Notes: generated by a model from the letters alone, not told the origin. Shown: positions 20,391-54,458, counted from the stretch's first letter. The stretch is 64,000 bases of DNA from Chloroflexota bacterium (GCA_017853275.1 JAFMJV010000003.1:64649-128648); one strand, 5' to 3'. Made by a program: numbers and translations.

Positions 20391-20504
20391 GGCGATCCGG
20401 CGGCGGCTCGGGGCACCCGCGGCGCTCGGCGTGCCGTGGCACCGGGGGGAGCGGGGGCTCTAGGGTCCGGTCAGCCCTCGGTGGATCGGGTGAGCGCGGC
20501 CGCG
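20391..20504. repeat. 114-bp direct repeat, copy 2 (right border of the 11-kb insert)
   Basis: Identical to 9246-9359. It holds a relic of the permease 3' end (including TAG 20461-20463) and the genuine 3' end of the protease gene (stop 20471-20473). Confidence 0.9.
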
Positions 20505-20953
20505 ATCGCCGCGGCGGCATCCCGCAGGGCGCCCTCCACCTCGGGGGAGAGCGGGTCCCCCATCCCGAAGGAGCGCCCGCCGATCCCCACGAAGCTCCCG
20601 GCCGGGACGCGCCCGCCGATGAGCGCCGCGAGGGCGATCGTCTCCTCCAGGGGAAGCTCGTGGGAGGAGCGCGGCCTGGGCCCGGGGCCTGCGGCACGTG
20701 CCGTCCCCATCCCCGCCAGCTCCGCGAGCGGCCGGATCCAGAGCGTCCCCGGCGGGATCCCCGCCACCGCGTCCACGATCACCGTCTCCGCCTCGGCAGG
20801 GAGGTCGAGGAGGAGCTGGACGTCCAGGCTCCCGGCGGGGATCACGCGGACGCCCGCGAGGAGCGCCGGGTCGAGGAGGTCGGCAGCCCGGAAGGCGGCG
20901 TCATCGTCCCCGCGGGCCGGCTCGCCGCACAGGACGAGCGTGCGCTCGGCCAC
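20471..20953 (-). CDS. [NiFe]-hydrogenase maturation endopeptidase (HoxW/HycI-like)
   Basis: 160-aa ORF reading LVLCGEPARGDDDAAF...VIVDAV, typical of hydrogenase maturation proteases. It lies 4 nt downstream of the large-subunit gene. Confidence 0.75.
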   Translation of the reverse strand: MAERTLVLCGEPARGDDDAAFRAADLLDPALLAGVRVIPAGSLDVQLLLDLPAEAETVIVDAVAGIPPGTLWIRPLAELAGMGTARAAGPGPRPRSSHELPLEETIALAALIGGRVPAGSFVGIGGRSFGMGDPLSPEVEGALRDAAAAIAAALTRSTEG

Positions 20954-20956
20954 CGC

Positions 20957-22288
20957 TCAGGCGCGGTCGATCGTGAGATCGAGGAAGTGGGTCGCGCAGC
21001 TGATGCAGGGGTCGTAGGAGCGGATCATCTGCTCCAGGCGGTGGGTCGCCTCGGCATGGGGGAGCGCCAGGACCTCGCGCGCGGCGACCACGAGATCGGC
21101 CTCGATCGCCGCCTGGTTCTGGCTCGTGGGCGGGACGATCTGCGCCTCCCGGATCCGGCCCCGATCGTCCACCACGTAGCGGTGGAAGAGGAGGCCGCGC
21201 GGGGCTTCCGTGGCCCACGCGGCGACCCCGGCGCGCGGCTCCCAGGCGGCGAGCGGGACGGAGGGCGGCACGTAGGCATCGATGAGGTCGAGCGCCTCCG
21301 CGTAGGCGTGGATGAGCTCCACCCCGCGGGCCACGATCGAGGCGTAGATGTTCGTCCGGATGAGCTCCGCGAAGCCGCTCTGGTCGAGCGCCTCGCGGGC
21401 GAGCGGGTGGAGCGTCCCGCCGGTGAGGGTGACGCGGGCTGCGGGGCCGAGGAGATAGGCGCCCTTCCCGTCCAGGGTCCGGGCATGGAGCGCGTTGCTC
21501 CCCTCCACCTGGTGCTCCTCGAAGATCGAGCGCCAGTCCGCCATCGGGATGTCGATCCCGTCCGAGCTCACGATCCGGCCGTGGTTGAAGGGGTACTCGT
21601 CCGGGTGGCGGAGGGAGACGAGGCGAGGCTCGCGCGCGAAGGCGGGCATCGGGAGGCTCGCCACGAAGCGGGTCGTCTCCTGCGCGATCGCGAGCCCGTC
21701 GGCGAGCGCGGGCCGGAGGGCGAGGAGCTCGGAGCGGCGCGGGGCGCGGCTCCAGCCGCCCACGCGGACGGAGACCGGGTGGATCGGCCGGCCGCCGAGG
21801 AGGCGGAGGAGGTCGTTCCCGGCCTTCTTCGCGCGGAGCGCCGCCTCCACCCGCTCCCGGTGGTCCGCGGCCATCGCGATCGCGGAGGGATAGCCGAGGA
21901 AGTCCGGCGCGTGGAGGAGCCAGATATGGAGGGCGTGGCTCTCGATCCACTCGCCGCAGTAGAGGAGCCGCCGGAGGGCGCGCACGGAGGGATCGATCGC
22001 GACGCCGAAGAGGTCCTCGAAGGCGTGGACCGCGCTCATCTGGTACGCCACGGGGCAGATCCCGCAGATGCGCGCGACGATGTCGATCACCTCGTCCGGC
22101 GTCCGATCCACCACGAGCGCCTCGAAGTAGCGCGGCGCCTCGAAGATCCCGAGGCGCGCCTCCACGATCTCGCCGCCGCGGACGACGAGGTGGAGCGAGC
22201 CCTCCCCCTCGACGCGGGTCAGCTCACCGACGGCATAGGTGCGGTCCTCGGGGACGGGGGCCGGGGTGGGGGTGGGACGCTCGGTCAT
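20957..22288 (-). CDS. hyhL: [NiFe]-hydrogenase large (alpha) subunit, group 3b-like
   Basis: N-terminal RICGICPVAY and C-terminal DPCISCATH Ni-Fe ligand motifs. The product is 443 aa from ATG 22288 (MTERPT...), and ATGA overlaps the small-subunit stop. Confidence 0.85.
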   Translation of the reverse strand: MTERPTPTPAPVPEDRTYAVGELTRVEGEGSLHLVVRGGEIVEARLGIFEAPRYFEALVVDRTPDEVIDIVARICGICPVAYQMSAVHAFEDLFGVAIDPSVRALRRLLYCGEWIESHALHIWLLHAPDFLGYPSAIAMAADHRERVEAALRAKKAGNDLLRLLGGRPIHPVSVRVGGWSRAPRRSELLALRPALADGLAIAQETTRFVASLPMPAFAREPRLVSLRHPDEYPFNHGRIVSSDGIDIPMADWRSIFEEHQVEGSNALHARTLDGKGAYLLGPAARVTLTGGTLHPLAREALDQSGFAELIRTNIYASIVARGVELIHAYAEALDLIDAYVPPSVPLAAWEPRAGVAAWATEAPRGLLFHRYVVDDRGRIREAQIVPPTSQNQAAIEADLVVAAREVLALPHAEATHRLEQMIRSYDPCISCATHFLDLTIDRA

Positions 22289-23151
22289 CGCGCTCCCTCC
22301 TGGGCCGCGCGGCGGGCGGCCTCCGGTGCCATGGGAAGCGAGCGGCGGCTCCCCTCCGGCGCTCCGCCCGTGGCGTCGATCGCGCTGCGGAAGGGCTGCG
22401 CCCAGGCCGTGAAGCCGGCGAGGAGCCGGCCCGCCTCCGCGGGGTCGTGGCCGAGATCGGCGGTGAGATGGCGGAGGAGGCCGTCCACGTTCGCGCCCTC
22501 GCGCGGCCCGAAGCAGCCGTAGCAGCCGCGCCCGTAGCGGGGGCAGATCGCGCCGCATCCACCCTGGGTCACCTGGCCGAGGCAGGGGACACCCTTCGCG
22601 ACCGCCACGCAGACCGCGCCGCGCCGCTTGCACTCCTGGCAGACCGATTCATCGCGCAGCTGCGGCCGGCGGCCGGTGGCGAGCGCGGCGAGAAGCTCCA
22701 GGAGCTGGTCCGGGTCGATCGGGCAGCCGCGCAGCTCGGCATCCACGGGGACGAGATCGGCGACGGGGAGGGAGCGGTCGAGCGAGGCGACCCATTCCGG
22801 CCGGGCGTAGACCGCGTCCCGGAAGGCCGCGTGGTCGCCCCAGTTCCGGAGCGCCTGGATCCCGCCCGCGGTGGCGCAGGCGCCGATCGTCACGAGGTAC
22901 CGCGTCCGGGCGCGCAGCTCCACGATCCGCTCCGCCTGGTGCGGGTCGGAGATCGAGCCCTCGATGAAGAGGACGTCGAAGGGGCCGGCGGAGCGCGCCG
23001 AGGAGGCCTCCGGGAAGTCGAGGATCTCGAAGCGCTCCGTGACGTCCAGGAGGCGCTCCTCGAGGTCGAGGATCGTGAGCTGGCAGCCATCGCAGGAGGC
23101 CATCTTCACGACCCCCACGCGGGGCCGGGCGGGCGCGGCGGAGGAAGCCAT
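22285..23151 (-). CDS. hyhS: [NiFe]-hydrogenase small (delta) subunit, group 3b-like
   Basis: VVKMASCDGCQ...IGACATAGGI plus C-terminal Cys clusters (CQECKRRGAVC, GGCGAICP, CYGCFGP) fit an NuoB-fold FeS subunit. Start is ATG 23151. Confidence 0.85.
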   Translation of the reverse strand: MASSAAPARPRVGVVKMASCDGCQLTILDLEERLLDVTERFEILDFPEASSARSAGPFDVLFIEGSISDPHQAERIVELRARTRYLVTIGACATAGGIQALRNWGDHAAFRDAVYARPEWVASLDRSLPVADLVPVDAELRGCPIDPDQLLELLAALATGRRPQLRDESVCQECKRRGAVCVAVAKGVPCLGQVTQGGCGAICPRYGRGCYGCFGPREGANVDGLLRHLTADLGHDPAEAGRLLAGFTAWAQPFRSAIDATGGAPEGSRRSLPMAPEAARRAAQEGAR

Positions 23152-25130
23152 CAGATCCCCTCCCGTCCGAAGGTGTCGCCGAGCTGGGCGATCGAGAAGA
23201 CCGGGCCGTCCTTGCAGATGAAGAGGCTCCCCATCTGGCAGTGGCCGCAGAGCCCGATCCCGCACTCCATGTGGCGCTCCAGGGTGACCCACGTGCGGGC
23301 CGCCCCGATCCCCCGCGCGGCGAGCGCCGCGACCGTCGCCTGCATCATCCGCTCCGGCCCGCACACGAAGGCGTGCGTCGCGCTGCCGTCCCAGGTCGCC
23401 CGGTCGAAGAGGTGGGTGACCACGCCGACCGGCCCGGACCAGTCGCTCCCCGCGCGGTCCACGGTGAGCGCGACCTCGATCCCGGCGTGCGGCCAGATCC
23501 CCTCCAGCTCATCGCGGAAGAGGAGGTCCGCCGGGGTCCGCGCGCCGTAGTAGAGGCGCACGCTGCCGAAGCGCTCCCGGTCCGCCACCACCGCGTCCAG
23601 GACCGGCCGGAGCGGCGCGAGACCGATCCCGCCGGTGACGATCACGAGGTCGCGGCCGGCGACCCGGTCGAGCGGCCAGGCGGTGCCGAGGGGTCCGCGG
23701 AGGCCCACCTCATCCCCCGGCTGGAGGCCGCACAGGACGCGCGTGGCGGGTCCTGCGCCGCGGATCGTGAGGACGAGACCGTCCGCGGTGAAGCGGCTGA
23801 TCGAGATCGGCAGGGGCGGGAAGCCGGGCAGGTCGACCATCGCGAACTGGCCCGGCCGGCCGGCCGCGAAGGCCGGGTCGAGGCGGTCGATCGCGAGCGT
23901 CGTGGTATCCGCGGTCTCGCTCCGGACCGCGCTCACCCGTCCCACCGCGAAGGCGCCGGGCGTGGCCGCCACCGGCGCGATGACCGGCTCCGGCGGGCGG
24001 ACCGGCGCGATCGCCGCGGCCTCCTCCCGGAGATCGATCCCGACCGGGCACCAGGTGACGCAGCGGCCGCAGCCGACGCATCCGGGCGTCCCGAACTGGT
24101 CCTCCCAGGTGGCGAGCTTGTGCGTCAGCCACTGGCGATAGCGGTCGCGCGGGCGGGAGCGGAAGGAGCCGCCCGCCACCTTCGCGAAGGACGGGCTGAA
24201 GCAGCTATCCCAGGTCCGGTTCATCACGACGTCCGCGCCCGCCAGGTCGGTCGTCTGGGTGACCGAGGTGCAGAAGCAGGTGGGGCAGACGCTCGTGCAG
24301 CTCCCGCAGGTGATGCAGCGCTCGGCCACCTCGGCCCAGCGGGGATGGTCCGGCTGCGCGAGGAGGCGCTCCTTGAGGCCGGGGAGGGCGACCGGGTCGC
24401 CGATCCTGGCGCGCGTGGCGGCGACCTCGTGGGTCGCCCGGGCCCGCTCCTCCGGCGTGGCGACGCGCGCGGCGAGGGCGGCGAGGAGCGTCTCGCCCGC
24501 AGGCGTGGCCGCCTCCACGAGGAGCCCGTCCTCCGTCTCCACGATCGCGAGGTCGTGGCCGGCGGTGAGCTCGGGTCCGCTCCCCATCGAGGTGCAGAAG
24601 CAGGTCGGGGCGCTCACCGTGCAGCCCACCGCCACGATCAGCGTGTCCGCGCGCCGGGCCGCGTAGTCCGTGTCCACGAAGGGGCCGCCCTGGAGGACGC
24701 GGTCGTGGATCCGGAGCGCCGCGATCTCGCAGGCACGGATGCCGAGGAAGGCGATCTTCGGCGGCTCGGGGAGGACGGGGTCGAAGGTGACCTTCCCCTC
24801 CGACCGGGTGGCGCGGGAGATCGGGACGAGGGACGGGAAGGTCCACGCCTTGGGCGAGGAGGGGCCGAGGTTGTAGCCGAAGAGCCGGTCGTCCTCGCGC
24901 CGGACGAGCCGGTAGCGGCCGGGCGCCTGGTCATCCCCCCAGCCGCGCGGGAGCTGGTCCGCGCTGACGATCTCGTCCATCACGATCGCCCCGTCCGCAA
25001 CGGTGGGGCCGATCACCCGGCGGCCGTCCGCGCGGAGGAGGTCGAGGAGGGGCTGGATCCCGTCCCGCGAGAGGAAGCGCGGTCCGGCCAGGGCCGGAAG
25101 GGGAGCGGGGGGTGGGGGCGTCATCACCAT
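23151..25130 (-). CDS. Fused hydrogenase beta-gamma subunit (AsrA-like 4Fe-4S protein fused to AsrB-like FAD/NAD(P)/2Fe-2S oxidoreductase)
   Basis: One uninterrupted frame. The N-terminal half carries CITCGSCTSVCPTCFC and CVGCGRCVTWCP. The C-terminal half carries RPGQFAMV, VTGGIGLAPL and CGIGLCGHCQMG. Start is ATG 25130 or 25124. Confidence 0.8.
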   Translation of the reverse strand: MVMTPPPPAPLPALAGPRFLSRDGIQPLLDLLRADGRRVIGPTVADGAIVMDEIVSADQLPRGWGDDQAPGRYRLVRREDDRLFGYNLGPSSPKAWTFPSLVPISRATRSEGKVTFDPVLPEPPKIAFLGIRACEIAALRIHDRVLQGGPFVDTDYAARRADTLIVAVGCTVSAPTCFCTSMGSGPELTAGHDLAIVETEDGLLVEAATPAGETLLAALAARVATPEERARATHEVAATRARIGDPVALPGLKERLLAQPDHPRWAEVAERCITCGSCTSVCPTCFCTSVTQTTDLAGADVVMNRTWDSCFSPSFAKVAGGSFRSRPRDRYRQWLTHKLATWEDQFGTPGCVGCGRCVTWCPVGIDLREEAAAIAPVRPPEPVIAPVAATPGAFAVGRVSAVRSETADTTTLAIDRLDPAFAAGRPGQFAMVDLPGFPPLPISISRFTADGLVLTIRGAGPATRVLCGLQPGDEVGLRGPLGTAWPLDRVAGRDLVIVTGGIGLAPLRPVLDAVVADRERFGSVRLYYGARTPADLLFRDELEGIWPHAGIEVALTVDRAGSDWSGPVGVVTHLFDRATWDGSATHAFVCGPERMMQATVAALAARGIGAARTWVTLERHMECGIGLCGHCQMGSLFICKDGPVFSIAQLGDTFGREGI

Positions 25131-25606
25131 GAGCGCACCTGCTCGGCAGCATAGAGATCGAGGAGCTGGAGGCGCGTCGCCGTGAGCCGCCGGGAGACGG
25201 CGAGGAGGACGCGCGGGTAGAGCGCCGCGGCGAGGGCAGGGTCCTCGTGGAGGGCCGCGCGGAGCGCGGTGCCGGGGAAGACGATCGCCTCGAGCGGCTC
25301 GATCGCGACGGCCGTCGAGGTGGCCCGGTAGGGCGGCACGAGCGCGGACCAGCCGTAGATGTCGCCCGGCTCCACGGTGAGGATCGTCGCCTCGCCGCGC
25401 TCGGGGACGAGCGTGCGCAGGGCGACCCGGCCGGTGATCACGACCCCCAGGAGGTCCGTCCCCTCGCCCTCGCGGAGGATGACCGTGCCGGCGGGCGCGG
25501 AGACCGGCCGGGCGAGCGCCGCGAGCCGGGCGGAGACCGCGGGCGCGAGCCCGGTGGCGAACCACGTGGAGGCAAGGGTCGCGACGAGGGTGGCCTGATC
25601 GTTCAT
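25124..25606 (-). CDS. Stand-alone cyclic-nucleotide-binding-domain protein (Crp-like effector domain, no HTH)
   Basis: 160-aa ORF with a cNMP beta-roll pattern (VILREGEGTDLLGVVITGRVAL...EPGDIYGWSALV...RATSTAVAIEP). Its stop (25124-25126) overlaps the beta-gamma start. Confidence 0.7.
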   Translation of the reverse strand: MNDQATLVATLASTWFATGLAPAVSARLAALARPVSAPAGTVILREGEGTDLLGVVITGRVALRTLVPERGEATILTVEPGDIYGWSALVPPYRATSTAVAIEPLEAIVFPGTALRAALHEDPALAAALYPRVLLAVSRRLTATRLQLLDLYAAEQVRSW

Positions 25607-25699
25607 GACCTCAGTCTCGCCTCCGGTGCGGGATGGGGAGAGGGCCGAGCGGCCCGGCGGAGCGTGACGAGCGTCCCACCGGGGCCGGTCCGGCCGGGG

Positions 25700-28600
25700 T
25701 CAGCCTCCGGGGGGGCGGCCGGCGGGCGGGGCCGGGCGGGAGCGGGCTGCGATCACCGTGGCCGCCACCGCGACGAGGATGAGGATGCCCATGACGATCG
25801 TGTCCGCGCGGATCGTGGAGCCCTCGACGCGCGGGTCCATGTTCACCGCGAACTGGAAGTCGTAGTTCCAGGTGGGGAGGAGCATCTGGTAGATGTTCGC
25901 CATCGCCGAGGGGACGGGGAGGCCGGAGAGGTTCGGGATGAAGGCGACGAGGAAGAGGATCGCGGCGAGGAGGATCCCCACCGCGAGCCGGCGCGGATCC
26001 CGGGCACGCAGGACGAGGATGGCCGCGATCCCGAGCGCGATCAGCGCCGGAAGGGCGATGAAGATGTCCGCGACCTCGACCGAGATCGGGTCACCGGAGA
26101 GGAGGAGGCGCGCGGCCACGACGCCGAGGAGCGTGGCGCCCCCGGTGCCGAGGAGCGCGACGCTCCCCCAGCGGCCGTTCCGGCCGGGCGCGCCGGTGCT
26201 TCCGGAGATCTGGACGATCCAGAGCGCGACGGCGATCCCCGCGAGGAGGACGAAGAGGATCCCGATCGCCTGCTGGCTGAGCGTGATCGTGCGGGTGACG
26301 GTCTCCGCGCAGGCGGTCGCTCCCGGGTTCATCTCCGTGACGCCCGCGATCGCGCAGAGCGGCTGGCGGAAGAGCCAGAGGAGCGGGGCGCCCACGAGCG
26401 AGAGGGCGGCGGCGATCCGCGCGATGAGCCAGGCGGCGCGCGAGGGGCCGTGCCACAGCTCCGCCACGAGGTAGCCGAGCCCGAGGACGATGAATGGGAG
26501 GCTCGCATAGACGTGGTACTGGAAGGTGGCCCGGTCGATCCGCGCCCACGGGATCCACATCGACAGGAAGAGGACGATGACGAGCGTGAGCGCGAGGCTC
26601 CGCCGCCGCCACGCCGCCCACGCGGAGAAGATGAGGCCCGCGATCCCCATCCAGAAGACGACGAGGTTCCCGGTGTCGTAGATCGAGCCGGTCCGGCCAC
26701 CTGCGAAGCCCTCCTGGTAGAACCAGACCGGCTTGAGGTCGAGCGGCCAGGCCCACCACGGCGAGGTGGCCGCGTGGGTCGCCCGCAGGCCGTCGTGGTA
26801 GTCGTACATCCCGAGCGTGAGCTGCCAGAGCGTCTGCCCGGTGTTCCCGGCCGGGAAGCCCGGCCAGAGCTGGTTGCCGAGCGCCGCCCAGGGGAGGTAG
26901 GCGGCCACGTAGACGGCGAGCGGGATCAGCGTGAGGCAGGCGAGCGCGAGGAGCCAGGGGATCCCCCCGGCGGCCCCGGGGAGGAGCCACGCGTGGGGTG
27001 GCGGTGCGGAGGGCTCCGGGCCCACGCGGGAGAGGCCGGGCCGGGCGAGCGGTCCGATCCCCGCCGCGCCCGCGAGGCGCCCCGCGACCAGGACGCCGAC
27101 CCCGAGGACGATGAGCCCGATCCCCGCGAGGAGCGCGAGCCGCGGGTCGGGCGGGGCAGGGGCGGCCGGGTCCGACGGGGCAAGGAAGAGGAGACCGCCC
27201 GCGATGAGCGCGAGGACGCCGAGGACGATCGGCACAAAGGTCGCGAAGCGGAGCTCGTCCAGGGTCATCCGGACCGGGCGCCGGACGATCGCCGCGGCGA
27301 GCGCGACGGTGAGCAGGATGATCACGATCGGGAAGAGCCAGTTCCGGCTCGGGTCCGGGACATCCGCCGCCCGGAGCGCCATCGCGCCGAGGACGGCGGA
27401 GAGGACGACCATCCCGGCGAGCGCGAGGAGCCGGCCGAGGGCGGAGCGGAAGAGGACGAGGAGGATGATCCCGCCGATCGCGTAGGCCGCGACCCACTTG
27501 GACGCGAGCGCAAGCCCGAGCAGGAGCCCGACCCCCATGAGCCCGGCGGCGATCTGCCAGGCGCGGGTCCAGCGACCGGTCCAGAGCCCGGCGAAGAGGG
27601 TGAGCGCCGCGACCACGAAGAACGTGATGTAGACGTCGTTCATCGCGATCCGGGCGTTCGCGAAGAGCATCCCCTCCGCGAGGGCGAGGACCGCGACCGC
27701 GACCGCGACGGCGCGGCGGCGGAAGAGGATCCGGGCGAGCAGGTAGAGGAGCGCCGCGGTGAGCGCGCCGAGGATGACGCCGGGGAGGCGCCAGGCGAAG
27801 GCGTTCCCGCCGACCCCCACGGTGGCGCTCGCCCCGTCCGCGGCGACCGCGATGAGCCCCGTCCGGTCCGCCTCCGGCCGGTCGGGCTGGAGGTCGAGCG
27901 TCACCGCGACCGGGGTGAAGGGGAGGCGGGCGTCCGCGAAGAGCGAGCTCCCGTTCGGCTCGATGACCCAGACGGTCGGCTCGCCCGCGGCCGTCCTGCC
28001 CACGACGTGGATGAGGGACGCGGTGTCGTTCCAGAGGACCGGGCCACCGCTCCCCGGAAGCCGGACCGGCTCACGCGGGATGGGGCCCGTCCGGTCGAAG
28101 CGCCACGCGGTCACCTCGCCCTCGCGGGCGACGTAGAGGAGGGGCTCGCCGGTCCCGTAGGGCATGTAGCCGAGACCGAGGACGGGGCTCTCCGTGCCGA
28201 GGGTGCGCAGGATGCGCAGCGAGGAGGGATCCACGATCTCCACGCCCGCGGGGGCCGCGACGGCGACCACGGGGACGGAGGCGAAGCTGACGCCGGTGAG
28301 CCGCCCGTCGTCGATCGGCCCCTGGAGGGTCTCGCGCACGAGATCGTCCGGCCAGGCGGCGAGGACGACCGGTCCGTCCGCCGTGCGGAGCCGCTCCTCG
28401 ATCGCCACGGCATCGATGCCGAGGGCTTCGGCGAGCGGGATCGCCGCGGTCGCGAGGTCGCCGATCAGGGTGGGGTCGGCAACGACCGCCTCGGCGTCCC
28501 CCGCGCGGGAGAGGGCGATGGAGCCGGGGAGGGAGAGCGAGGGACCGACCTGCCGGAGGGTGAGGTCGATCGTGTGCAGCGTCCCGTCCGCGTCGAGGAG

Positions 28601-30934
28601 GACGACCTCGTCCCAGGTCCGCACGAGGTCGATGACCGGGGCGCCGGGCGGGAGGGTCGCGATCTCGTCCGGGAGCGGGGGCCGGTCCGCGTTGCCGAGC
28701 CGGAGCGCATCCATCGCGACGGTGTCGATCGAGCGGAGGGTCCGGTCCTCGCCGGCGATCCAGAGCTGATGCTCGTCCGCGTCCAGCACGAGGGCGGTGG
28801 CGGCAGGACCGATCGGACCGGTGCGCTCGCCGGTGGCGAGATCGATCGCGGTCACTCCGTCCGGGCCGGCGATCCAGAGCCGGTCGCCCATCCGGCGGCC
28901 GGGGTCCCCATCCGGGCTCCAGCGCCGCTCCACGAGGGCGTCCGCCACCGCGCCGTCCGCGACCCGCCCGGTGGCGACCACGCGGTTCCCGCCCGTGAGA
29001 TCGACGCTCGCGGCCATCAGGTACTTCGCGAGGTGCGGGTGCGTGTACTCGTAGATCCCGTGCGGGTATCCGTAGCGCCAGTGCTGGAGGAACTCGAGCG
29101 CGGTCCGCGCGTGGTAGACCTCGTCGAAGTACATCCCGTAGGGGTGCGCGAGGTTGGCACCCCGCAGGACGAGGCCCGCGAGGACGATCGCGAGGAGGGC
29201 GGCGGCATCCTTCCGGGTGAGCGTCCCGCCCCGCTCGCGGGCGAGGCCGGCGCTCCGGTCCGCGCGGGCGCGGGGGGCGGAGAGGTAGCGGCCCACGCGG
29301 GACGCCGCGGTCCGCCAGGCATCCCAGCCGGCGGGCGCGGGCATGGCGGCCTCCATCCCGGCGGATGGCGTAGGCGCCGCGAGCGGCCCGGAGCCGCCCA
29401 CGCGGCGGGGGGCAGAGCCGGGTACGGGGGCTTCCATGGGAGCGCCGGGGATGGGGTCGCCCACCGGACGCGCGAGGTCCGGGATGACGCTCCGGCGGAC
29501 CGCCCCGGCGAGCTCGCCGGCGATCCGCTCGAAGGGGTCCGGTGCGATGCGCCGCCGGAGCTCCCAGCCCGCGAGGACGAGTCCCGTCCCCTGGAGGAGG
29601 ATCGCGACGAGGATCGGGAGCGGTCGGCCGGGCCCGAAGGCCTCGCCGAGCGGGAGGCCCGCGATGTTCTCCGTGGAGTAGCCGGGGACCATGAGGATCC
29701 CGTGGAGGTTGATGAAGGAGCCGGCCGCGACCGCGATCAGGGCGGCCATCCAGCGCGGCGAGGCGACGGCGAGGAGCGGCAGGAAGGCGAAGACCGGGAA
29801 GAGGTAGCGCTCGTGGACGCGCGTGGGGAGGAAGAAGAAGGCGAGCGAGAGCCAGACGGCCGCCAGGAGGATCGTCCAGCGGTCCGCGGCGAGGATGCTG
29901 CGCAGGAAGCCCCACAGGAAGCCGAGCGCAAGGAGGACCGTCCCGATGAGGATCCCGGGGAGCGGGCCGAGGAGCGGGACGTCGTCCGGGGACCAGGCGT
30001 AGGCGAGGGCGAGCGGCGGGCTGCCGCCGGCGCCCAGGAGCGCCCACAGGTTGTAGGCGTTCACCGAGAGATACGGATAGCCACCCGCCGTCTGGGACAT
30101 CAGGCTGAGGTACTGGATCGGCCCGATCCCGAAGGGGAGGGCGATGGCGAGGAAGACGAGGACGAAGGCGAGCCCGGCGGTGACGAGCCGGAGGGGTCCC
30201 TGCTCGGCGGCGAGCCACGGCCGGATGGCCGCCGGCCCCCACGGCCGGTTGCGCGGCGCGGATCCCCGGCGGAGGAGATGGCGCGAGATCAGGACGCCCA
30301 CGACGATCGGCGCGAGGACGATCCCGAACTGGGGCTTCATCAACGCCGCGACGGCGAGGAGCGCGGCGGATCCCTCGCCATTGCCGCGCACGAGGGCCGC
30401 GACGGCGAGGAGCATGACGAGCGCCCCCACCGCGTCCGTCTGCCCCCAGATCGCGGAGTCGTAGATCGTGACCGGGTTGAAGAGCCAGACGGCGGCGGCG
30501 ATGAGCGCCAGCTGCGGCGCGCGCCGGCCCGGCCAGGTCCAGCCGAGGACGAGCCGGTAGAGGAGGAACCCGACGGCCAGGTCCGCGGCGATCGCAGGGA
30601 GCTTGATCAGCTCCCCGGTGGCGTTCCCGCCGTCCCCGCCGAGGAACGAGCCGAGGAGACCGATCGGCCACAGGACGAGGAGATAGCCGGGCGGGTAGTC
30701 GGACCAGACGGATCCGTAGAAGCCGCCCGGTCCCCGCTCCGCCATGACGTTCGCCCAGGCGATATAGCTGTTGAGGTCCGTCGCGAAGCCCGATCCGGGG
30801 AAGAGGACATACGCGAGCGTGAGACGGAGGGCGAGAGCGCCGAGCAGGAGTAGGATGAGGGCGGGCGTCTGGGAGACCGGGGGCAGAGGACGCCCAGCCG
30901 ATCCGACCACCGAGCCGGACGAGGTCGGGAACAC
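25700..30934 (-). CDS. Giant polytopic double GT-C glycosyltransferase with a soluble insertion in the PMT/GT39 module
   Basis: The track ORF reaches 31360 (1886 aa). I prefer GTG 30934, which has GGAGG 11 nt upstream and TATACT about 41 nt upstream. Module 1 is a GT-C-like module (FATDLNSYIAWA...DYPPGY). Module 2 is PMT-like (MYFDEVYHAR...YEYTHPHLAKY...NAFAWRLPG...SPWWAWPL...FQYHVY). Confidence 0.75.
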   Translation of the reverse strand: MFPTSSGSVVGSAGRPLPPVSQTPALILLLLGALALRLTLAYVLFPGSGFATDLNSYIAWANVMAERGPGGFYGSVWSDYPPGYLLVLWPIGLLGSFLGGDGGNATGELIKLPAIAADLAVGFLLYRLVLGWTWPGRRAPQLALIAAAVWLFNPVTIYDSAIWGQTDAVGALVMLLAVAALVRGNGEGSAALLAVAALMKPQFGIVLAPIVVGVLISRHLLRRGSAPRNRPWGPAAIRPWLAAEQGPLRLVTAGLAFVLVFLAIALPFGIGPIQYLSLMSQTAGGYPYLSVNAYNLWALLGAGGSPPLALAYAWSPDDVPLLGPLPGILIGTVLLALGFLWGFLRSILAADRWTILLAAVWLSLAFFFLPTRVHERYLFPVFAFLPLLAVASPRWMAALIAVAAGSFINLHGILMVPGYSTENIAGLPLGEAFGPGRPLPILVAILLQGTGLVLAGWELRRRIAPDPFERIAGELAGAVRRSVIPDLARPVGDPIPGAPMEAPVPGSAPRRVGGSGPLAAPTPSAGMEAAMPAPAGWDAWRTAASRVGRYLSAPRARADRSAGLARERGGTLTRKDAAALLAIVLAGLVLRGANLAHPYGMYFDEVYHARTALEFLQHWRYGYPHGIYEYTHPHLAKYLMAASVDLTGGNRVVATGRVADGAVADALVERRWSPDGDPGRRMGDRLWIAGPDGVTAIDLATGERTGPIGPAATALVLDADEHQLWIAGEDRTLRSIDTVAMDALRLGNADRPPLPDEIATLPPGAPVIDLVRTWDEVVLLDADGTLHTIDLTLRQVGPSLSLPGSIALSRAGDAEAVVADPTLIGDLATAAIPLAEALGIDAVAIEERLRTADGPVVLAAWPDDLVRETLQGPIDDGRLTGVSFASVPVVAVAAPAGVEIVDPSSLRILRTLGTESPVLGLGYMPYGTGEPLLYVAREGEVTAWRFDRTGPIPREPVRLPGSGGPVLWNDTASLIHVVGRTAAGEPTVWVIEPNGSSLFADARLPFTPVAVTLDLQPDRPEADRTGLIAVAADGASATVGVGGNAFAWRLPGVILGALTAALLYLLARILFRRRAVAVAVAVLALAEGMLFANARIAMNDVYITFFVVAALTLFAGLWTGRWTRAWQIAAGLMGVGLLLGLALASKWVAAYAIGGIILLVLFRSALGRLLALAGMVVLSAVLGAMALRAADVPDPSRNWLFPIVIILLTVALAAAIVRRPVRMTLDELRFATFVPIVLGVLALIAGGLLFLAPSDPAAPAPPDPRLALLAGIGLIVLGVGVLVAGRLAGAAGIGPLARPGLSRVGPEPSAPPPHAWLLPGAAGGIPWLLALACLTLIPLAVYVAAYLPWAALGNQLWPGFPAGNTGQTLWQLTLGMYDYHDGLRATHAATSPWWAWPLDLKPVWFYQEGFAGGRTGSIYDTGNLVVFWMGIAGLIFSAWAAWRRRSLALTLVIVLFLSMWIPWARIDRATFQYHVYASLPFIVLGLGYLVAELWHGPSRAAWLIARIAAALSLVGAPLLWLFRQPLCAIAGVTEMNPGATACAETVTRTITLSQQAIGILFVLLAGIAVALWIVQISGSTGAPGRNGRWGSVALLGTGGATLLGVVAARLLLSGDPISVEVADIFIALPALIALGIAAILVLRARDPRRLAVGILLAAILFLVAFIPNLSGLPVPSAMANIYQMLLPTWNYDFQFAVNMDPRVEGSTIRADTIVMGILILVAVAATVIAARSRPAPPAGRPPGG

Positions 30935-30965
30935 GCGCTGACCGGCCTCCAGGAGCGAGCGGAGA

Positions 30966-32786
30966 GTGGACGGGAGTATAGCAACGGGCCCCCTGCCGCC
31001 ATTCCCCCCGGATGAAGCGGGTGATGGGCGGTCGCCGACGTCACCCCCGGCTCCGCCCCGGCCCTCGTGGGCACCCCCGGTGCGGCCCGGTCCGGCGACC
31101 CCGTCACCCGTCCCACCGGAGCCTCTCGTCCCCCCGCTCCCGCGCGCCTCGAACGCCGCCGCGGAGCGCTCGCTCGCGGGCTGGGCCGTGGCGGCGATCG
31201 GGGAACCCGCCGCGGAGCCCGGTGAGCCGCCGGCCGGCCGGACCGGCGACCTCCGCTCGCCGGGCGTCCCACCCCCGCCCGGTCCCGGCAGCGACCCCTG
31301 GCAGCTCGCGGCTCCGGCGCCGGGGGAGGCCGGCGGCCCGGCCGTCAGCCCGTGGATCACCGATCCCGGGGAGGTGCCGGCTCCGCCCGTGGCGCTCCCG
31401 GCGCGGCCGGGGAGGAAGCGGCGCGATCGCTCGACGATCCTCGGGCGCTTCCTCGACCGGGTCGACCCGCTGATCGTGGGTGCCCTCCTCTTCCTCGTCG
31501 CTGCGTGGGTCTACCTGGGGAGCAACCCGGGCCGGATCGACTTCTACGACCACTTCACGTGGCAGGCCGAGGCCTGGCTGAGCGGCCACGCGGGGATCCG
31601 CTGGCCCGTCTCGGAGGGGCCCTTCGTGAACGACTACTTCCAGGACGTGCTCCCCCTCGACGACGATCCGGGTCACGCCCTCATCCCCTTCCCGCCGCTC
31701 CCCGCGATCCTCCTTCTCCCCTTCGTGGCGGCCTTCGGGCTGGCGGCGAGCGCCTCCACCCTCGCGGCGGTCCTCGGCGCGCTGAACGTCGTGCTCTGCT
31801 GGCGGATGCTCCTGCGGGTGACGGATCGCCGGGATGCCGCGCTCCTGGGCGCGATCTTCTACGGCTTCGGGACGGTCGCGTGGTACGCGGCGATGCTCGG
31901 GAACACGTGGTTCTACGCTCACGTGGCGGCGTCCACCTTCGTCTTCCTCTCGATCACCGCCGCGCTGGACGCGGACCGGCGGGAGCAGACGGGCCAGGCC
32001 GCGCGGCGGATCGCGGGGATCCTCGTGCCGCGGGCGGTGTGGGCCGGCTTCCTCGCGGGGATCGGGATGCTCGCCCGGCTCCCCACCGGGTTCGGTGCGA
32101 TCTTCCTCGTCTTCGTGGGCGGCGGCGGCCACTGGTTCCGGCGCGGGCTCTCGGCGGCGATCGGGGCGCTGATCCCCGTCCTCCTCCTGCTCGGCTACAA
32201 CCTCACCGTGACCGGGCATCTCTTCCACCCGGCCTACGAGTACCTCTACCGCAACGAGTACCGGCCGGTGGGCGCCTTCTGGAACGATTCGTGGGCGATC
32301 GAGGACCCGCGCTACATCCCCCAGAACGCGATCATCATGCTCGCGTGGCCGCCGGAGCGGCCGATCGAGGAGGACCCCGAGTGCGCCGGCCGGGGGAACC
32401 TCCAGGGCGCGGACCTCCTCTTCGACCGCCAGTGCCCCCTCCTCCGGCCGAGCCCGATCGGGATGAGCATCCTCCTCACGAGCCCCGCCTACCTCCTCAT
32501 GCTCCCCGTCCTGTTGCGCGGGAGGCGGAACCGGCTCGTCCTGGGCGCCGGCCTCGCGGTCCTCCTCATCACGATCGTCAACCTCAGCCACTTCAGCCAG
32601 GGCTGGGTCCAGTTCGGGTACCGCTTCTCCAACGACTTCGCACCGTATGCCGCGATCCTCGTCACGCTGGGGATCGCGAGCGCGCTCCGGAACCGGACAG
32701 GGACCGCGATCGCCGTCCTCCTCGTGGGCGCCTCCGTCCTCGTCAACGCCTGGGGGGTCTGGTGGGGAGTGGCACGGGGATGGTGA
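30966..32786 (+). CDS. GT-C-fold membrane glycosyltransferase (ArnT/PMT_2-like)
   Basis: Polytopic body begins near residue 170 (VDPLIVGALLFLVAAWVYL) and has an acidic first loop (DFYDHF...NDYFQDVLPLDDDP). Start is uncertain: GTG 30966 from the track or GTG 31374. The N-terminus is Pro-rich and low complexity. Confidence 0.6.
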   Translation: MDGSIATGPLPPFPPDEAGDGRSPTSPPAPPRPSWAPPVRPGPATPSPVPPEPLVPPLPRASNAAAERSLAGWAVAAIGEPAAEPGEPPAGRTGDLRSPGVPPPPGPGSDPWQLAAPAPGEAGGPAVSPWITDPGEVPAPPVALPARPGRKRRDRSTILGRFLDRVDPLIVGALLFLVAAWVYLGSNPGRIDFYDHFTWQAEAWLSGHAGIRWPVSEGPFVNDYFQDVLPLDDDPGHALIPFPPLPAILLLPFVAAFGLAASASTLAAVLGALNVVLCWRMLLRVTDRRDAALLGAIFYGFGTVAWYAAMLGNTWFYAHVAASTFVFLSITAALDADRREQTGQAARRIAGILVPRAVWAGFLAGIGMLARLPTGFGAIFLVFVGGGGHWFRRGLSAAIGALIPVLLLLGYNLTVTGHLFHPAYEYLYRNEYRPVGAFWNDSWAIEDPRYIPQNAIIMLAWPPERPIEEDPECAGRGNLQGADLLFDRQCPLLRPSPIGMSILLTSPAYLLMLPVLLRGRRNRLVLGAGLAVLLITIVNLSHFSQGWVQFGYRFSNDFAPYAAILVTLGIASALRNRTGTAIAVLLVGASVLVNAWGVWWGVARGW

Positions 32787-34378
32787 GCGCGGCGCGGCCG
32801 GTGGAGCGACCCCGGCGGGAGCCCTTCCCGGACACGTGGGCTGCGGCCCCGCTCCTCGCAGCGGCGGCCGCCCTCGGGCTCTACCTCCCCACCCTCATGC
32901 CGGGGGTCGGGGTCTGGGACACCGCGGAGTTCCAGGCGCTCGGTCCCACGCTCGGGATCGCCCATCCCACCGGCTACCCGGCCTACACGCTCCTCCTCTG
33001 GCTCGCCTCCGTCGTCCTCCAGCCGTTCGGGGAGCCGGCCTTCCGGGCGAACCTCCTCTCGGCGCTCCTCACCGCCGGGGCGGCCGCCTTCGCCGCGATC
33101 GCCCTCATCCAGCTCACCCGCCGGACGGCGATCGCGCTTGCGGGCGGGATCGCGCTCGCCGTGGCGCCGGTCGCGTGGGCGAACGCGCTGCGCGCGGACC
33201 CCCATCCGTTCCACCTCTTCCTCAGCGCGCTCCTCCTCGTCCTCCTCATCGCCTGGGGCGAGCGGGTCCGCGCCGGCGAGGAGCGGGCGGGCCGCCTTCT
33301 CGTGGCCGCGTCGGCGGTCTGGGCCCTCTCCGTGGGGAACCACGCGCTCAGCCTCCTCCTCGCCCCGGGGATCGCGCTCTACGTCCTCCTCGTCGTGCCG
33401 CCGCGGGCGTGGCTGACGCGCCGGCACTGGGGGCTCGTCCTGGGCTGCATCGTCACGATCGTCGTCATCGTGGTGGCGACCTACGCCTACCTCCCGATCC
33501 GCTCCTCCATGGGACCCCCGCTGGACTACGCCCACCCCGCGGACTGGATCCGCACGGATGCGTGGGGGAACGTGACCGGCGGCTTCCGCTACCTCGTCCT
33601 CGGCGAGCAGTTCCAGGGGACCTTCCGCGAGCTCCCGGAGCTGCGCGAGGCGATCGCCACCGTCTGGGCGCAGCTGGAGGCGAACCTCGGGCCGGCGGCC
33701 TGGCTCGTCCTCCTCGGCATCCCGGCCGGGCTGATCCGGCGGACCCGCGAGACGATCCTCATGCTCGCCTGGTTCGTCATCACCTGGCGCTTCTCGCTCG
33801 GCTATCTGAACGCGGCGATCGAGCGCTACTACCTCGTCCCGATCCTCGTCGCGGTCCTGTGGGCCGGGATGGGGCTCGACCTCGTCTGGAGCGCGCTGGC
33901 CCGGGTGGGCCGGCTCGTCGCGGCACCGGGATCGCGGGCCGCGCAGGCCACCGGGCTCGCGGCTTCGATCCTCATCGGCGGGCTCGCGCTCGGCGTCGTC
34001 CTCCAGCCGGTCCAGGAGCGAGCGCGGATGCTGGACGCCTCCGGCGATACGTGGGCGCAGGCATGGCTGGACGAGGTCCTCGTGGCGCTCCCGCAGGACG
34101 CGGTCATCGTCAGCTGGTGGGGCTGGTCCACGCCGCTCTGGTATGCGATCCACGTGGAAGGCCGGCGGCCGGACCTCCTCGTCATCGACGATCGCAACGT
34201 CCTGGATGACGGCTACGGCGGCGCCGGGGTGGCGATCGATACCTGGCTCGGCCGGCGGCCGGTCTACATCATCCGGCTGGACGGGGATCTCCCCGCCTTC
34301 CAGGAGCGCTGGGGGCTGGAGCCTCTGCCGGGGATCACGACGGGTAGCCCGGTCTACCGGGTCATCCCGCCCTCCTGA
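32780..34378 (+). CDS. DUF2723/TMEM260-like GT-C membrane glycosyltransferase
   Basis: ATG 32780 overlaps the previous stop. The N-terminal loop motif VWDTAEFQALGPTLGIAHPTGYPAY resembles the WDxGEF...HPPG signature of DUF2723 proteins as I recall it. A polytopic N-terminal half is followed by a soluble C-terminal domain. Confidence 0.65.
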   Translation: MVSAARPVERPRREPFPDTWAAAPLLAAAAALGLYLPTLMPGVGVWDTAEFQALGPTLGIAHPTGYPAYTLLLWLASVVLQPFGEPAFRANLLSALLTAGAAAFAAIALIQLTRRTAIALAGGIALAVAPVAWANALRADPHPFHLFLSALLLVLLIAWGERVRAGEERAGRLLVAASAVWALSVGNHALSLLLAPGIALYVLLVVPPRAWLTRRHWGLVLGCIVTIVVIVVATYAYLPIRSSMGPPLDYAHPADWIRTDAWGNVTGGFRYLVLGEQFQGTFRELPELREAIATVWAQLEANLGPAAWLVLLGIPAGLIRRTRETILMLAWFVITWRFSLGYLNAAIERYYLVPILVAVLWAGMGLDLVWSALARVGRLVAAPGSRAAQATGLAASILIGGLALGVVLQPVQERARMLDASGDTWAQAWLDEVLVALPQDAVIVSWWGWSTPLWYAIHVEGRRPDLLVIDDRNVLDDGYGGAGVAIDTWLGRRPVYIIRLDGDLPAFQERWGLEPLPGITTGSPVYRVIPPS

Positions 34379-40719: not shown

Positions 40720-40982
40720 CTCTCCACGGTCCGGGAAGAGATGGTTCTTCTTTCATTCTTCATCCCGTCATCGTCATCAGGACGTTGGCGGTGTGGAGAT
40801 CCGCCCCTCCTCCACGAGGGCGGACGCTCGGGATCCGGCCCGGAAGGGTGTGGACGGCGCGGCGCCACCACGCGGCCGGCCGGGATCCGCCCTGTGGGCG
40901 CCGCGTGGACGATCCCGGGGATCTTCCCCATCCCATCCCCGGAGAGGGGCGCCGACCCCGGATCCGGAGCCACTTCTCCACA
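40720..40982. other. Candidate oriC: six DnaA-box-like 9-mers plus an AT-rich patch
   Basis: Boxes with a TCCAC core: CTCTCCACG at 40720, ATCTCCACA (reverse complement of 40792-40800), TCCTCCACG at 40808, CCGTCCACA (reverse complement of 40849-40857), TCGTCCACG (reverse complement of 40903-40911) and TTCTCCACA at 40974-40982. The stretch 40741-40780 is about 42% GC. Confidence 0.55.
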
Positions 40983-41084
40983 GCGCATCCAGCCCCGCAG
41001 ATCCCCCATCCGACCCGCTCGCCGCGGCGAAGATGGGATACTCGACCAATGATGCGTTCCCCAGGACGCCGTGAGGAGACCCGG

Positions 41085-42227
41085 ATGCTTCGCCGAACCG
41101 CCCTCCTGATCCTCGCCGCAACGCTCGTGATCCCGGCGGCGGCCACCGCCCAGGTCCCGCGCGCCGCCAACGGCCAGGCGTGCACGATCGTGGGCACCGC
41201 AGCGGCAGACACGCTGCGGGGGACGAAGGGCAACGACGTCATCTGCGGCCTGGGCGGGAACGACCGGATGCTCGGCGGGACCGGGAGCGACACGCTGGAC
41301 GGTGGCGCCGGCGCAGACCGGCTCTCCGGGGAGGGCGGCACGGACCTCCTCCTCGGCGGCCTCGCGGTGGACACCCTGGATGGAGGAGCCGCCGCGGACC
41401 GGATCGTGGGCGGGGATGGCAACGACGCGGTGACCGCGGGGACCGGCGACGTCTGTGCCGCGCCCGGTGGGGACAGCATGACCGGGACCTGCACCGCGGA
41501 TACCGCGGGGCCCGTGATCTCCGCGGTCTCGGTCGCCGCGCAGGTCGCAGCCGGCTCCCTCCTCACCGTCACCTGGCGGCTCGCGGACGCGACCGGCGTC
41601 GGCATCCTCGAGGGCGGCCCCGCTTCCTGGCTCCAGATCGGGGGCGCCCCGGGCTGGCTCACCTGGTGCGGGTTCCAGATCCCCGCCACGCGGCTCTCCG
41701 GCGATGCGCTGGACGGGACCTACCAGGCCACCTGCGCGATCCCGGCCGGCGTCCCGAACGGCGAGTACGGCCTGTGGATCGGCGCCTACGACCTCGCCGG
41801 GACCACGACCCCCGCCGATGAGCGGGCGACCTTCCGGATCGGGGGCGGGACGGACGACACCACCGCCCCCGTCGTCACGGAGGTCCGCCTCGGCGGGCCG
41901 GTCCCGGGGCCCGGCGGCACGCTCATCCTCGAGTGGCGGGCGGCGGATCCGTCCGGGATCGACTACGTCCTTCCCTGGGTCTTCGGGCCGAACGGGCTCC
42001 TCGTGAGCCAGCCGAGCGGCGCCCAGTGGTTCGGGATGGGGAGCGACCCGGTGCGGCTCACCGGCGACGGCACGGACGGGACCTACCGCCAGTCACTCCC
42101 CGCCTCCGCGGAGCTGGTCCCGGGCGTCTACTCCGTCTGGTTCAGCGGCCGTGACGTCCCCGGGAACCGCTTCTACGACGGCGGCCCCGGCGGCACGGGC
42201 TACCTGACCTTCACCGTCCCGGGCTGA
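41085..42227 (+). CDS. Secreted calcium-binding protein with RTX-like GGxGxD repeats and two beta-sandwich repeats
   Basis: GGAG RBS 7 nt before ATG 41085, signal peptide MLRRTALLILAATLVIPAAATAQ, and GNDVICGLGGNDRMLGGTGSDTLDGGAGADRLSGEGGTD repeats. Confidence 0.75.
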   Translation: MLRRTALLILAATLVIPAAATAQVPRAANGQACTIVGTAAADTLRGTKGNDVICGLGGNDRMLGGTGSDTLDGGAGADRLSGEGGTDLLLGGLAVDTLDGGAAADRIVGGDGNDAVTAGTGDVCAAPGGDSMTGTCTADTAGPVISAVSVAAQVAAGSLLTVTWRLADATGVGILEGGPASWLQIGGAPGWLTWCGFQIPATRLSGDALDGTYQATCAIPAGVPNGEYGLWIGAYDLAGTTTPADERATFRIGGGTDDTTAPVVTEVRLGGPVPGPGGTLILEWRAADPSGIDYVLPWVFGPNGLLVSQPSGAQWFGMGSDPVRLTGDGTDGTYRQSLPASAELVPGVYSVWFSGRDVPGNRFYDGGPGGTGYLTFTVPG

Positions 42228-53080: not shown

Positions 53081-53193
53081 CCCATCCTCCAGCGATCGCT
53101 CCGCCGCGAGCCGCGGCCAACCGATCGTATCGGATTCAAGGCGGGGATCGCCGGGGCGGCCGGCGAAGGCGGAGTCCGGTGGCGGGCGCCGGC

Positions 53194-54405: not shown

Positions 54406-54458
54406 GCGCCGAGGATAGCGGGGCGCCGGTGTCGGAACGGGCGCTCCGCGCGTGGCGC

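Follow-up and report, generated by a model that had tools for sequence, protein, structure and literature searches.

A 64,000-nucleotide (nt) stretch of DNA from a Chloroflexota bacterium (GCA_017853275.1 JAFMJV010000003.1:64649-128648), referred to as the window, carries on its minus strand a [NiFe]-hydrogenase operon whose first gene encodes a small protein of the cyclic nucleoside monophosphate (cNMP)-binding type. The gene (25124..25606, minus strand, ATG to TGA) encodes 160 amino acids (aa), and what its product might do for the hydrogenase is the subject of this work. Downstream on the same strand lie a 659-aa diaphorase-type subunit, HydBG (23151..25130), in which Pfam and NCBIfam recognize HydB (4Fe-4S, AsrA-like) fused to HydG (FAD/NAD(P)-binding, 2Fe-2S); the 288-aa small (delta) subunit (22285..23151; Pfam Oxidored_q6; NCBIfam ShyD, 170 bits, full length); the 443-aa large (alpha) subunit (20957..22288; Pfam NiFeSe_Hases; NCBIfam ShyA, 250 bits, and HydA, 225 bits, full length); and, as the last gene of the conserved module, a 160-aa maturation endopeptidase of the HycI/HoxW type (20471..20953; Pfam HycI; NCBIfam TIGR00072, 62 bits, above cut-off).

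Within HydBG, Pfam places Fer4_22 at residues 271-365 and NAD_binding_1 and DHODB_Fe-S_bind at 498-650, and NCBIfam places sulfhydrogenase beta HydB/ShyB at 113-372 and gamma HydG/ShyC at 424-650, both below their equivalog cut-offs. The translated large subunit retains the CxxC motifs that bind the NiFe center, RICGIC near the N-terminus and DPCISCATH at the C-terminus. Across the alpha, beta, gamma and delta modules the best NCBIfam matches were the Pyrococcus-type ShyA/HydA, ShyB/HydB, ShyC/HydG and ShyD/HydD, all as full-length alignments with scores below the equivalog cut-offs. With four modules homologous to those of Pyrococcus SHI/SHII, the operon appears to encode a group-3b-like [NiFe]-hydrogenase.

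The junction between the cNMP-domain gene and HydBG reads GCGCTC-ATG-GTG-ATG-A, spanning ATGGTGATGA. Here the stop of the upstream gene (TGA 25126-25124) meets three candidate HydBG starts within 25124..25130 (minus strand), giving an overlap of 7, 4 or 1 nt for a start at ATG 25130, GTG 25127 or ATG 25124, respectively. A preliminary description of this DNA had placed the gene at the head of the hydrogenase operon with its stop overlapping the start of the fused beta-gamma gene, and both statements are borne out by the order of genes that follow (HydBG, small subunit, large subunit, protease) and by this junction. The same description took the overlap to suggest stoichiometric co-production, a suggestion that we do not retain. 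Because every other junction of the operon is equally tight (HydBG/small TGATG, small/large ATGA, large/protease a 3-nt gap), the overlap is ordinary operon packing and no special evidence of stoichiometric co-production; in some relatives, gaps of up to 47 nt take its place.

By its beta-roll fold, the 160-aa protein is a member of the cyclic-nucleotide-binding (CNB) domain superfamily. The Pfam scan returned PF00027 (cNMP_binding) at residues 35-121 (49.2 bits against a cut-off of 27.5; E 5e-13) with no further domain and no helix-turn-helix (HTH), and the NCBIfam scan returned only partial, sub-threshold matches to the cNMP domains of larger proteins (FtrB, Pat, encapsulin 2B). An AlphaFold2 model built with 17 homologs, of high confidence (mean pLDDT, the predicted local distance difference test, 91.5; pTM, the predicted template modeling score, 0.82), comprises two N-terminal helices, the beta-roll, a short helix and a long C-terminal helix of 37 residues (123-159, the C-helix), with which the chain ends, no domain lying beyond it. 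The protein is thus a stand-alone CNB fold without a DNA-binding domain, as initially described; it ends in a long C-terminal helix and lacks the HTH that follows the dimerization helix in transcription factors of the CRP/FNR family. Close homologs number about 1000, nearly all of 159-160 aa, which identifies a real gene and not a chance open reading frame (ORF) of a GC-rich genome. Lengths of 150-170 aa are kept throughout the homologs, 49 positions are invariant among 17 diverse ones, and the most conserved stretches in the family alignment are the pocket region (TILTxEPGD, WSxxVPP) and the C-helix motif RLxATRxxLLDLY.

Foldseek matched the model to many CNB domains with probability 1.00, the top matches being the cNMP domains of Mycobacterium tuberculosis (Mtb) CRP and Corynebacterium glutamicum GlxR, and phmmer against PDB sequences agrees with this placement. 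Mtb CRP (Rv3676) and GlxR share the beta-roll and C-helix with the window protein (27-29% identity, TM-score up to 0.74, 50 bits), but their HTH and their cAMP-contacting Glu and Arg are missing from it. Also among the matches is the stand-alone domain 3mdp (Gmet_1532, Geobacter metallireducens), which has the same single-domain layout and size (32% identity, root-mean-square deviation 1.8 A, TM-score 0.83 on the target). A further protein of this architecture and size is 3gyd (Mfla_1926); both are stand-alone CNB proteins of unknown function from structural genomics. We know of no hydrogenase link for either 3mdp or 3gyd.

The association between this gene and the hydrogenase extends well beyond the window. 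Scanning one genome for each species turned up relatives at 263 sites, and forward synteny was followed at the best 80 loci, all of them in Chloroflexota metagenome-assembled genomes (MAGs; Limnocylindrales and 'uncultured Chloroflexia'). At 79 of the 80, the cNMP-domain gene lies directly upstream of HydBG, small and large subunit genes; the exception, L036, is a second copy that sits among methyltransferase genes in a MAG also holding a linked copy (L005). The distance from the stop of the cNMP-domain gene to the HydBG start, obtained by extrapolation, was negative (an overlap) in 47 of 74 loci, and no gap exceeded 47 nt. A HycI-type protease gene is present in 70 of the 80 loci, while the flanks are not kept: the PMT-like gene that lies upstream in the window recurs in 2/80 and the GFO oxidoreductase downstream in 1/80. 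Because the module is conserved and the genes that flank it are not, the five genes can be said to travel together. Reverse synteny, starting from HydBG homologs and covering four loci picked only by long contigs or taxon label, found a PF00027-only gene of 159-171 aa directly upstream in 4/4, one of these MAGs being labeled Candidatus Dormibacteraeota. Compared with the window proteins, CNB homologs average 63.8% identity and HydBG homologs 64.3%, an equal pace of divergence; the small and large subunits average 68.8% and 73.1%.

Two variations on this arrangement were seen. At loci L039-L045 (Chloroflexota), the HycI-type protease gene is upstream of the CNB gene instead of 3' of the large subunit, and HydBG is again the gene right after the CNB gene. 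One Chloroflexota MAG carries a second, distant [NiFe] small/large pair (L007:104-2001; 28-32% identity to those of the window) about 6 kb upstream of its CNB-HydBG module.

Outside the Chloroflexota, the same family is found in a different gene order. A tblastn search of the CNB protein against plasmids returned 25 records at 32-44% identity, and orthologs align over about 115-140 residues at 34-44% identity, sharing the C-helix motif; an operon-embedded protein of Rhodococcus qingshengii, for instance, is 40% identical over 140 residues (E 5e-30). In Rhodococcus, Burkholderia, Paraburkholderia and Pandoraea, the CNB gene (152-154 aa) is inserted between separate hyhB and hyhG genes, the frames mostly overlapping, with small subunit, large subunit and protease genes next in line. 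The order hyhB-CNB-hyhG-hyhS-hyhL-protease likewise holds in Azotobacter chroococcum, Bradyrhizobium and a Dongiaceae MAG. Starting instead from HydBG, a sample of 15 plasmid records (42-48% identity) had the CNB gene between B and G in 12: 10/10 annotated records, Streptomyces rimosus by coordinates and Streptomyces BHT-5-2 by tblastn. The other three, all Streptomyces, have no CNB gene in that interval, their family member being encoded 12-20 kb off. A profile of the proteobacterial and actinomycetotal members retrieved more than 5400 proteins, again of 152-154 aa. No CNB gene accompanies the more distant AsrA/AsrB-type pairs of anaerobic sulfite reductase and of the Hdr-linked cluster of Ilyobacter. 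The CNB gene therefore characterizes a large bacterial subset of group-3b-type operons, not all of them.

Hydrogenase linkage thus holds in Chloroflexota, Actinomycetota and Pseudomonadota, as well as in the one MAG labeled Candidatus Dormibacteraeota, and is conserved far past what shared synteny explains. Co-occurrence with hydrogenases in relatives, which had been proposed beforehand as a check, is what both the forward (79/80) and reverse (4/4) comparisons and the two further phyla display.

Orphan paralogs away from any hydrogenase were noted at L036:8001-8480, L083:6914-7366 and L086:5941-6345, and the orphan copies of Streptomyces adjoin genes for a universal stress protein, a CBS-domain protein and a GAF-kinase/response regulator. 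Universal stress protein, CBS-domain, DUF1876 and wax-ester synthase genes also flank the module itself at L081, L082, L085, L096 and L098, in Rhodococcus, Burkholderia and some Chloroflexota. Such flanks recall hypoxia or dormancy regulons and fit the hypoxic induction of Mycobacterium smegmatis Hyd3 (PMC2799521).

An exhaustive profile search produced two long proteins, both singletons, in which cNMP_binding is joined to Fer4_22: P0152 (564 aa) and P0222 (613 aa). As Rosetta-stone fusions both were rejected and put down to frameshift artefacts, since their sequences switch into Arg/Pro-rich, out-of-frame stretches. The join in each corresponds to the HydBG frame extended upstream across the cNMP gene, as in a frameshifted read-through. 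The window itself illustrates how such sequences can arise: the HydBG frame is open upstream through the whole cNMP gene, forming an 804-aa ORF (23151..25565). Because this frame stays open in GC-rich DNA, a single indel creates a false cNMP-HydB fusion, and apparent fusions of this kind in metagenomic protein sets are best regarded as frameshift artefacts.

We compared the phosphate-binding cassette of the family with that of Mtb CRP by alignment. The Glu that contacts the ribose 2'-OH is replaced by Trp in 77/80 Chloroflexota proteins and by Val, Ala or Trp in other phyla; Glu never occurs at this position in the family. The column of the phosphate-binding Arg holds Ala, Ser or Gly in Chloroflexota and Trp in other phyla, and in 25/80 Leu takes the place of the cassette Gly. 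The position just before the canonical Arg column (R94 in the window protein) keeps an Arg or Lys only within Chloroflexota, with Gln or Val in some Actinomycetota. As aligned, then, the family does not carry the canonical Gly-Glu...Arg-Ser/Thr cassette, and two motifs of its own recur instead, both present in the window protein: G-x-S-[AW]-x-x-P-P in the cassette region and RL-x-[AS]-TR-x-x-LLD[LV]Y in the C-helix. These motifs are defined from this alignment and have no curated definition. With cassette Glu and Arg replaced and the pocket rich in aromatics, canonical binding of cAMP or cGMP is unlikely, and a conserved pocket for another ligand is plausible. By analogy, CNB domains without the cassette Arg can bind uncharged nucleosides, as in trypanosome protein kinase A. 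Ligation of a cofactor in the manner of FNR or CooA, by comparison, is ruled out by a protein that has no Cys and a single, nonconserved His.

The best-characterized point of comparison is HoxI, the cNMP-domain-only subunit of the NAD+-reducing soluble hydrogenase of Cupriavidus necator (Ralstonia eutropha H16), a group 3d enzyme (PMC3702609, PMC3189943). HoxI, the sixth subunit type of HoxFUYHI2, is found in the purified enzyme (PMC3702609) and has been described as a homodimer on the diaphorase module that acts as a site of NADPH activation or a regulatory dimer (PMC3702609, PMC12809855, PMC3189943). High salt and alkaline pH make it dissociate. Closer to the window, a cNMP-domain gene has been recorded in three group 3b clusters: Francci3_4499 of Frankia casuarinae, located between hyhB and hyhG and called a 'small transcriptional regulator' (PMC11879354); WP_013415449.1 of Rhodococcus equi (PMC13332983); and a gene of 'Methylocapsa/M. 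acidophilus' 29, called HoxI (PMC12319191). The three papers only note the gene, and their readings differ between transcriptional regulator and HoxI (PMC11879354, PMC13332983, PMC12319191). With these and HoxI (PMC3702609, PMC3189943) as precedents, the earlier impression that such a gene was new to group-3 hydrogenases does not stand. What we describe is a conserved feature of a kind already noted in the literature, with HoxI as its characterized analogue; what is new is that the family is distinct from HoxI, that its cassette Glu and Arg are replaced and that the two database fusions are artefactual.

By similarity, adjacency and shared motifs, the window protein can be placed in the unnamed Francci3_4499-type CNB family of bacterial group 3b operons. 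These genes and operons are of the same kind as those of the window, at 34-44% identity where checked (Rhodococcus, Burkholderia, Streptomyces, Azotobacter, Bradyrhizobium, Dongiaceae), and differ in gene order, with the CNB gene between separate hyhB and hyhG, whereas the window and its Chloroflexota relatives have the CNB gene at the front, ahead of an hyhB-hyhG fusion. The resemblance to HoxI is of another sort. Both proteins consist of a cNMP-type domain only (167 aa for HoxI, 160 for the window protein), both lie in operons of cytoplasmic NAD(P)-linked [NiFe]-hydrogenases and both lack the canonical cassette Arg, which in HoxI is His. Yet HoxI is only 25% identical to the window protein (25 bits) and keeps the cassette Glu that is replaced in the window family; its gene follows hoxW at the operon end, whereas the window gene precedes, and those of relatives split, HyhB/HyhG; and it partners the Complex-I-type HoxFU diaphorase of group 3d rather than the AsrA/AsrB-type HyhB/HyhG of a 3b-like enzyme. 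A hidden Markov model (HMM) of the hydrogenase-linked family gave 196 bits to a Burkholderia member, 179 to a Rhodococcus member and 142 to a Streptomyces orphan copy, against 60 for Mtb CRP, 40 for HoxI and 24 for E. coli CRP. Membership in the HoxI family was rejected on this identity and on an HMM score below that of Mtb CRP; the functional analogy stands.

On balance we favor, with modest rather than firm confidence, the view that the 160-aa protein serves a bacterial NAD(P)-linked [NiFe]-hydrogenase of group-3b type as a noncatalytic subunit, accessory or regulatory, analogous in function to HoxI without being its ortholog. An accessory or regulatory subunit is the best reading because the hydrogenase linkage is conserved beyond shared synteny. 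In such a scheme, the CNB protein would dimerize through its C-helix, as CRP and the HoxI homodimer do, and L134, V137, L141, L148 and L151 of this helix can be read as a heptad-like spacing of hydrophobic residues consistent with that role. The dimer would dock on the HyhB/HyhG electron-transfer module and, once docked, could tune activity, reactivation or stability according to a small ligand in the beta-roll pocket. The pocket might take a pyridine nucleotide, the ligand proposed for HoxI, or some other nucleotide that is uncharged or noncyclic, or it might take no ligand. The original proposal of a nucleotide-sensing accessory or regulatory subunit is therefore kept in its second half, through the conserved linkage, and given up where it implied sensing of cAMP or cGMP. 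Loss of the ligand-binding residues, anticipated there as a contrary outcome, is indeed what the alignment contains, Glu and Arg being replaced throughout the family, and this counts against a canonical sensor.

Several observations weigh against a subunit role. No true fusion of the CNB domain with HydBG was seen, PF00027 occurring in 0/120 of the best HydBG relatives, and physical association of the CNB protein with any group 3b enzyme is putative, being read from gene context. The analogy with HoxI cuts both ways, as the likeness in sequence is only generic (25% identity; 40 bits versus 60 for Mtb CRP) and the four-subunit soluble hydrogenase lacking HoxI is fully active (192 vs 227 U/mg; PMC3702609). 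Nor is the family strictly hydrogenase-bound, orphan copies existing at L036 and in Streptomyces. Some group 3b operons, conversely, have no CNB gene between B and G. One is that of Streptomyces NBC_01562; another is M. smegmatis Hyd3, where the consecutive locus tags MSMEG_3931-3927 are listed as beta, gamma, delta, alpha and protease, leaving nothing between beta and gamma (PMC2799521). From such operons it follows that the CNB gene is dispensable for the core enzyme.

That dispensability would suit a factor for assembly or maturation of the diaphorase module, for instance a chaperone for HyhB/HyhG during Fe-S/FAD insertion or HyhSL docking that is absent from the mature enzyme. Conserved co-transcription with structural and maturation protease genes would be expected of such a factor, and loss of the canonical ligand residues fits a purely protein-binding role. 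We nonetheless consider it improbable: the pocket region of the beta-roll (TILTxEPGD, WSxxVPP) is among the most conserved parts of the protein, suggesting a conserved binding site, and to our knowledge no CNB-fold protein acts as an Fe-S or flavin assembly factor. The one CNB protein from a hydrogenase operon that has been characterized, HoxI, belongs to the enzyme as purified (PMC3702609). Distinctly improbable, too, is a small HTH-less transcription regulator that heterodimerizes with, or titrates, a CRP/FNR-type factor via its C-helix and so autoregulates the hydrogenase operon. Its appeal lies in the nearest solved relatives being CRP-family factors (Mtb CRP and GlxR; 50 bits, TM-score 0.74, about 28% identity), in a long C-helix that corresponds to the CRP dimerization helix, in orphan copies located in stress- or dormancy-type neighborhoods and in the labels given to the family, 'small transcriptional regulator' in the Frankia paper (PMC11879354) and 'Crp/Fnr family transcriptional regulator' in databases. 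Set against these are a protein without an HTH, flanks that vary and conserve no nearby partner transcription factor, a divergence rate equal to that of structural subunits and, in Actinomycetota and Pseudomonadota, a place between two structural genes with overlapping frames, which is typical of subunits rather than regulators. We regard the database label as a misleading annotation for proteins of this CNB family.

A true cAMP/cGMP receptor would couple a second messenger directly to hydrogenase activity, which is the nucleotide-sensing proposal of the preliminary description taken literally. The Pfam cNMP_binding match above threshold and a fold that is that of cAMP-bound CRP speak for such a receptor, and R94, as Arg or Lys in Chloroflexota, could reach the phosphate given a loop shorter by one residue; but some Actinomycetota have Gln or Val there, Trp replaces the ribose-binding Glu in 77/80, the Arg column is Ala/Ser/Gly or Trp and the cassette Gly is Leu in 25/80, leaving this option very doubtful. 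We give negligible credence to the notion that the adjacency is meaningless, an unrelated small gene having come to lie beside the hydrogenase in one lineage. All 80 forward loci do come from one bacterial class, where synteny may be inherited, and orphan copies exist; yet the five-gene module is conserved while its flanks are not, and other phyla show this family beside hyhB/hyhG in another gene order, which effectively refutes the notion.

A HoxI-like subunit in group 3b enzymes would raise a broader proposal, one that we advance tentatively and consider rather unlikely: that two unrelated CNB lineages were recruited independently as small dimeric hydrogenase subunits, HoxI onto HoxFU (3d) and the window family onto AsrAB-type HyhBG (3b), and that the Trp-lined, Glu/Arg-less pocket of the latter binds a pyridine nucleotide or noncyclic ligand, gating electron flow or reactivation. 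Common among aerobic bacteria of soil and freshwater, group 3b hydrogenases are presumed to rid the cell of surplus reductant as H2 during hypoxia. The members of the group studied so far as models, Pyrococcus SHI/SHII and M. smegmatis Hyd3, have no CNB gene. Were the CNB protein a fifth subunit, the enzyme in its common bacterial form would be a five-component complex with a built-in ligand sensor, and its annotation as HyhBGSL would be incomplete. It would also offer, besides HoxI, a second, independent system in which to study what a cNMP-type domain does on a hydrogenase; our literature search found no solved group 3b structure with such a subunit, and the PDB copy searched held no HoxI entry. 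Independent recruitment, if true, would amount to a fifth subunit and to unrecognized allosteric control in a hydrogenase class of thousands of soil and freshwater bacteria.

Upstream of the operon, the 93-nt intergenic region (25607..25699, minus strand), which lies past the stop of the PMT-like gene, holds a candidate promoter picked out by comparison of relatives. The hexamer GAGACT at 25618..25613 (minus strand) occupies positions -12..-7 from the ATG of the cNMP-domain gene at 25606, and a [GT]AN[ACG]CT hexamer occurs at the same offset in 40/77 related loci, the background in random 18-nt windows being 3.5%. Near -44 from the same ATG, the relatives compared also share a conserved CGGCCCTGCC-like block. 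Scans around the operon for a consensus sigma-70 promoter and for intrinsic terminators found none, and tRNA and Rfam scans of the window gave no matches. The GAGACT region may be a promoter directly upstream, with the cNMP-domain gene as first cistron, and might yield a leaderless mRNA.

Other genes of the window deserve brief mention. Directly upstream of the hydrogenase operon is a giant, 1886-aa membrane protein with PMT / GT39-type domains (25700-31360, minus strand). A TMEM260-like O-mannosyltransferase is encoded divergently from it, and between the two is a 606-aa ORF for which Pfam gives no match (30966-32786 and 32801-34378, plus strand, cover these two genes). This PMT/TMEM260-like neighborhood is not conserved beside the hydrogenase in relatives (2/80). 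Further away, a 919-aa protein (51875-54634, minus strand) has a C-terminal part of 400 residues with glutaredoxin and pyridine-nucleotide-disulfide oxidoreductase domains and an N-terminal part of ~520 in which Pfam matches nothing, and a 480-aa ORF (40785-42227, plus strand) carries RTX / HemolysinCabind calcium-binding nonapeptide repeats.

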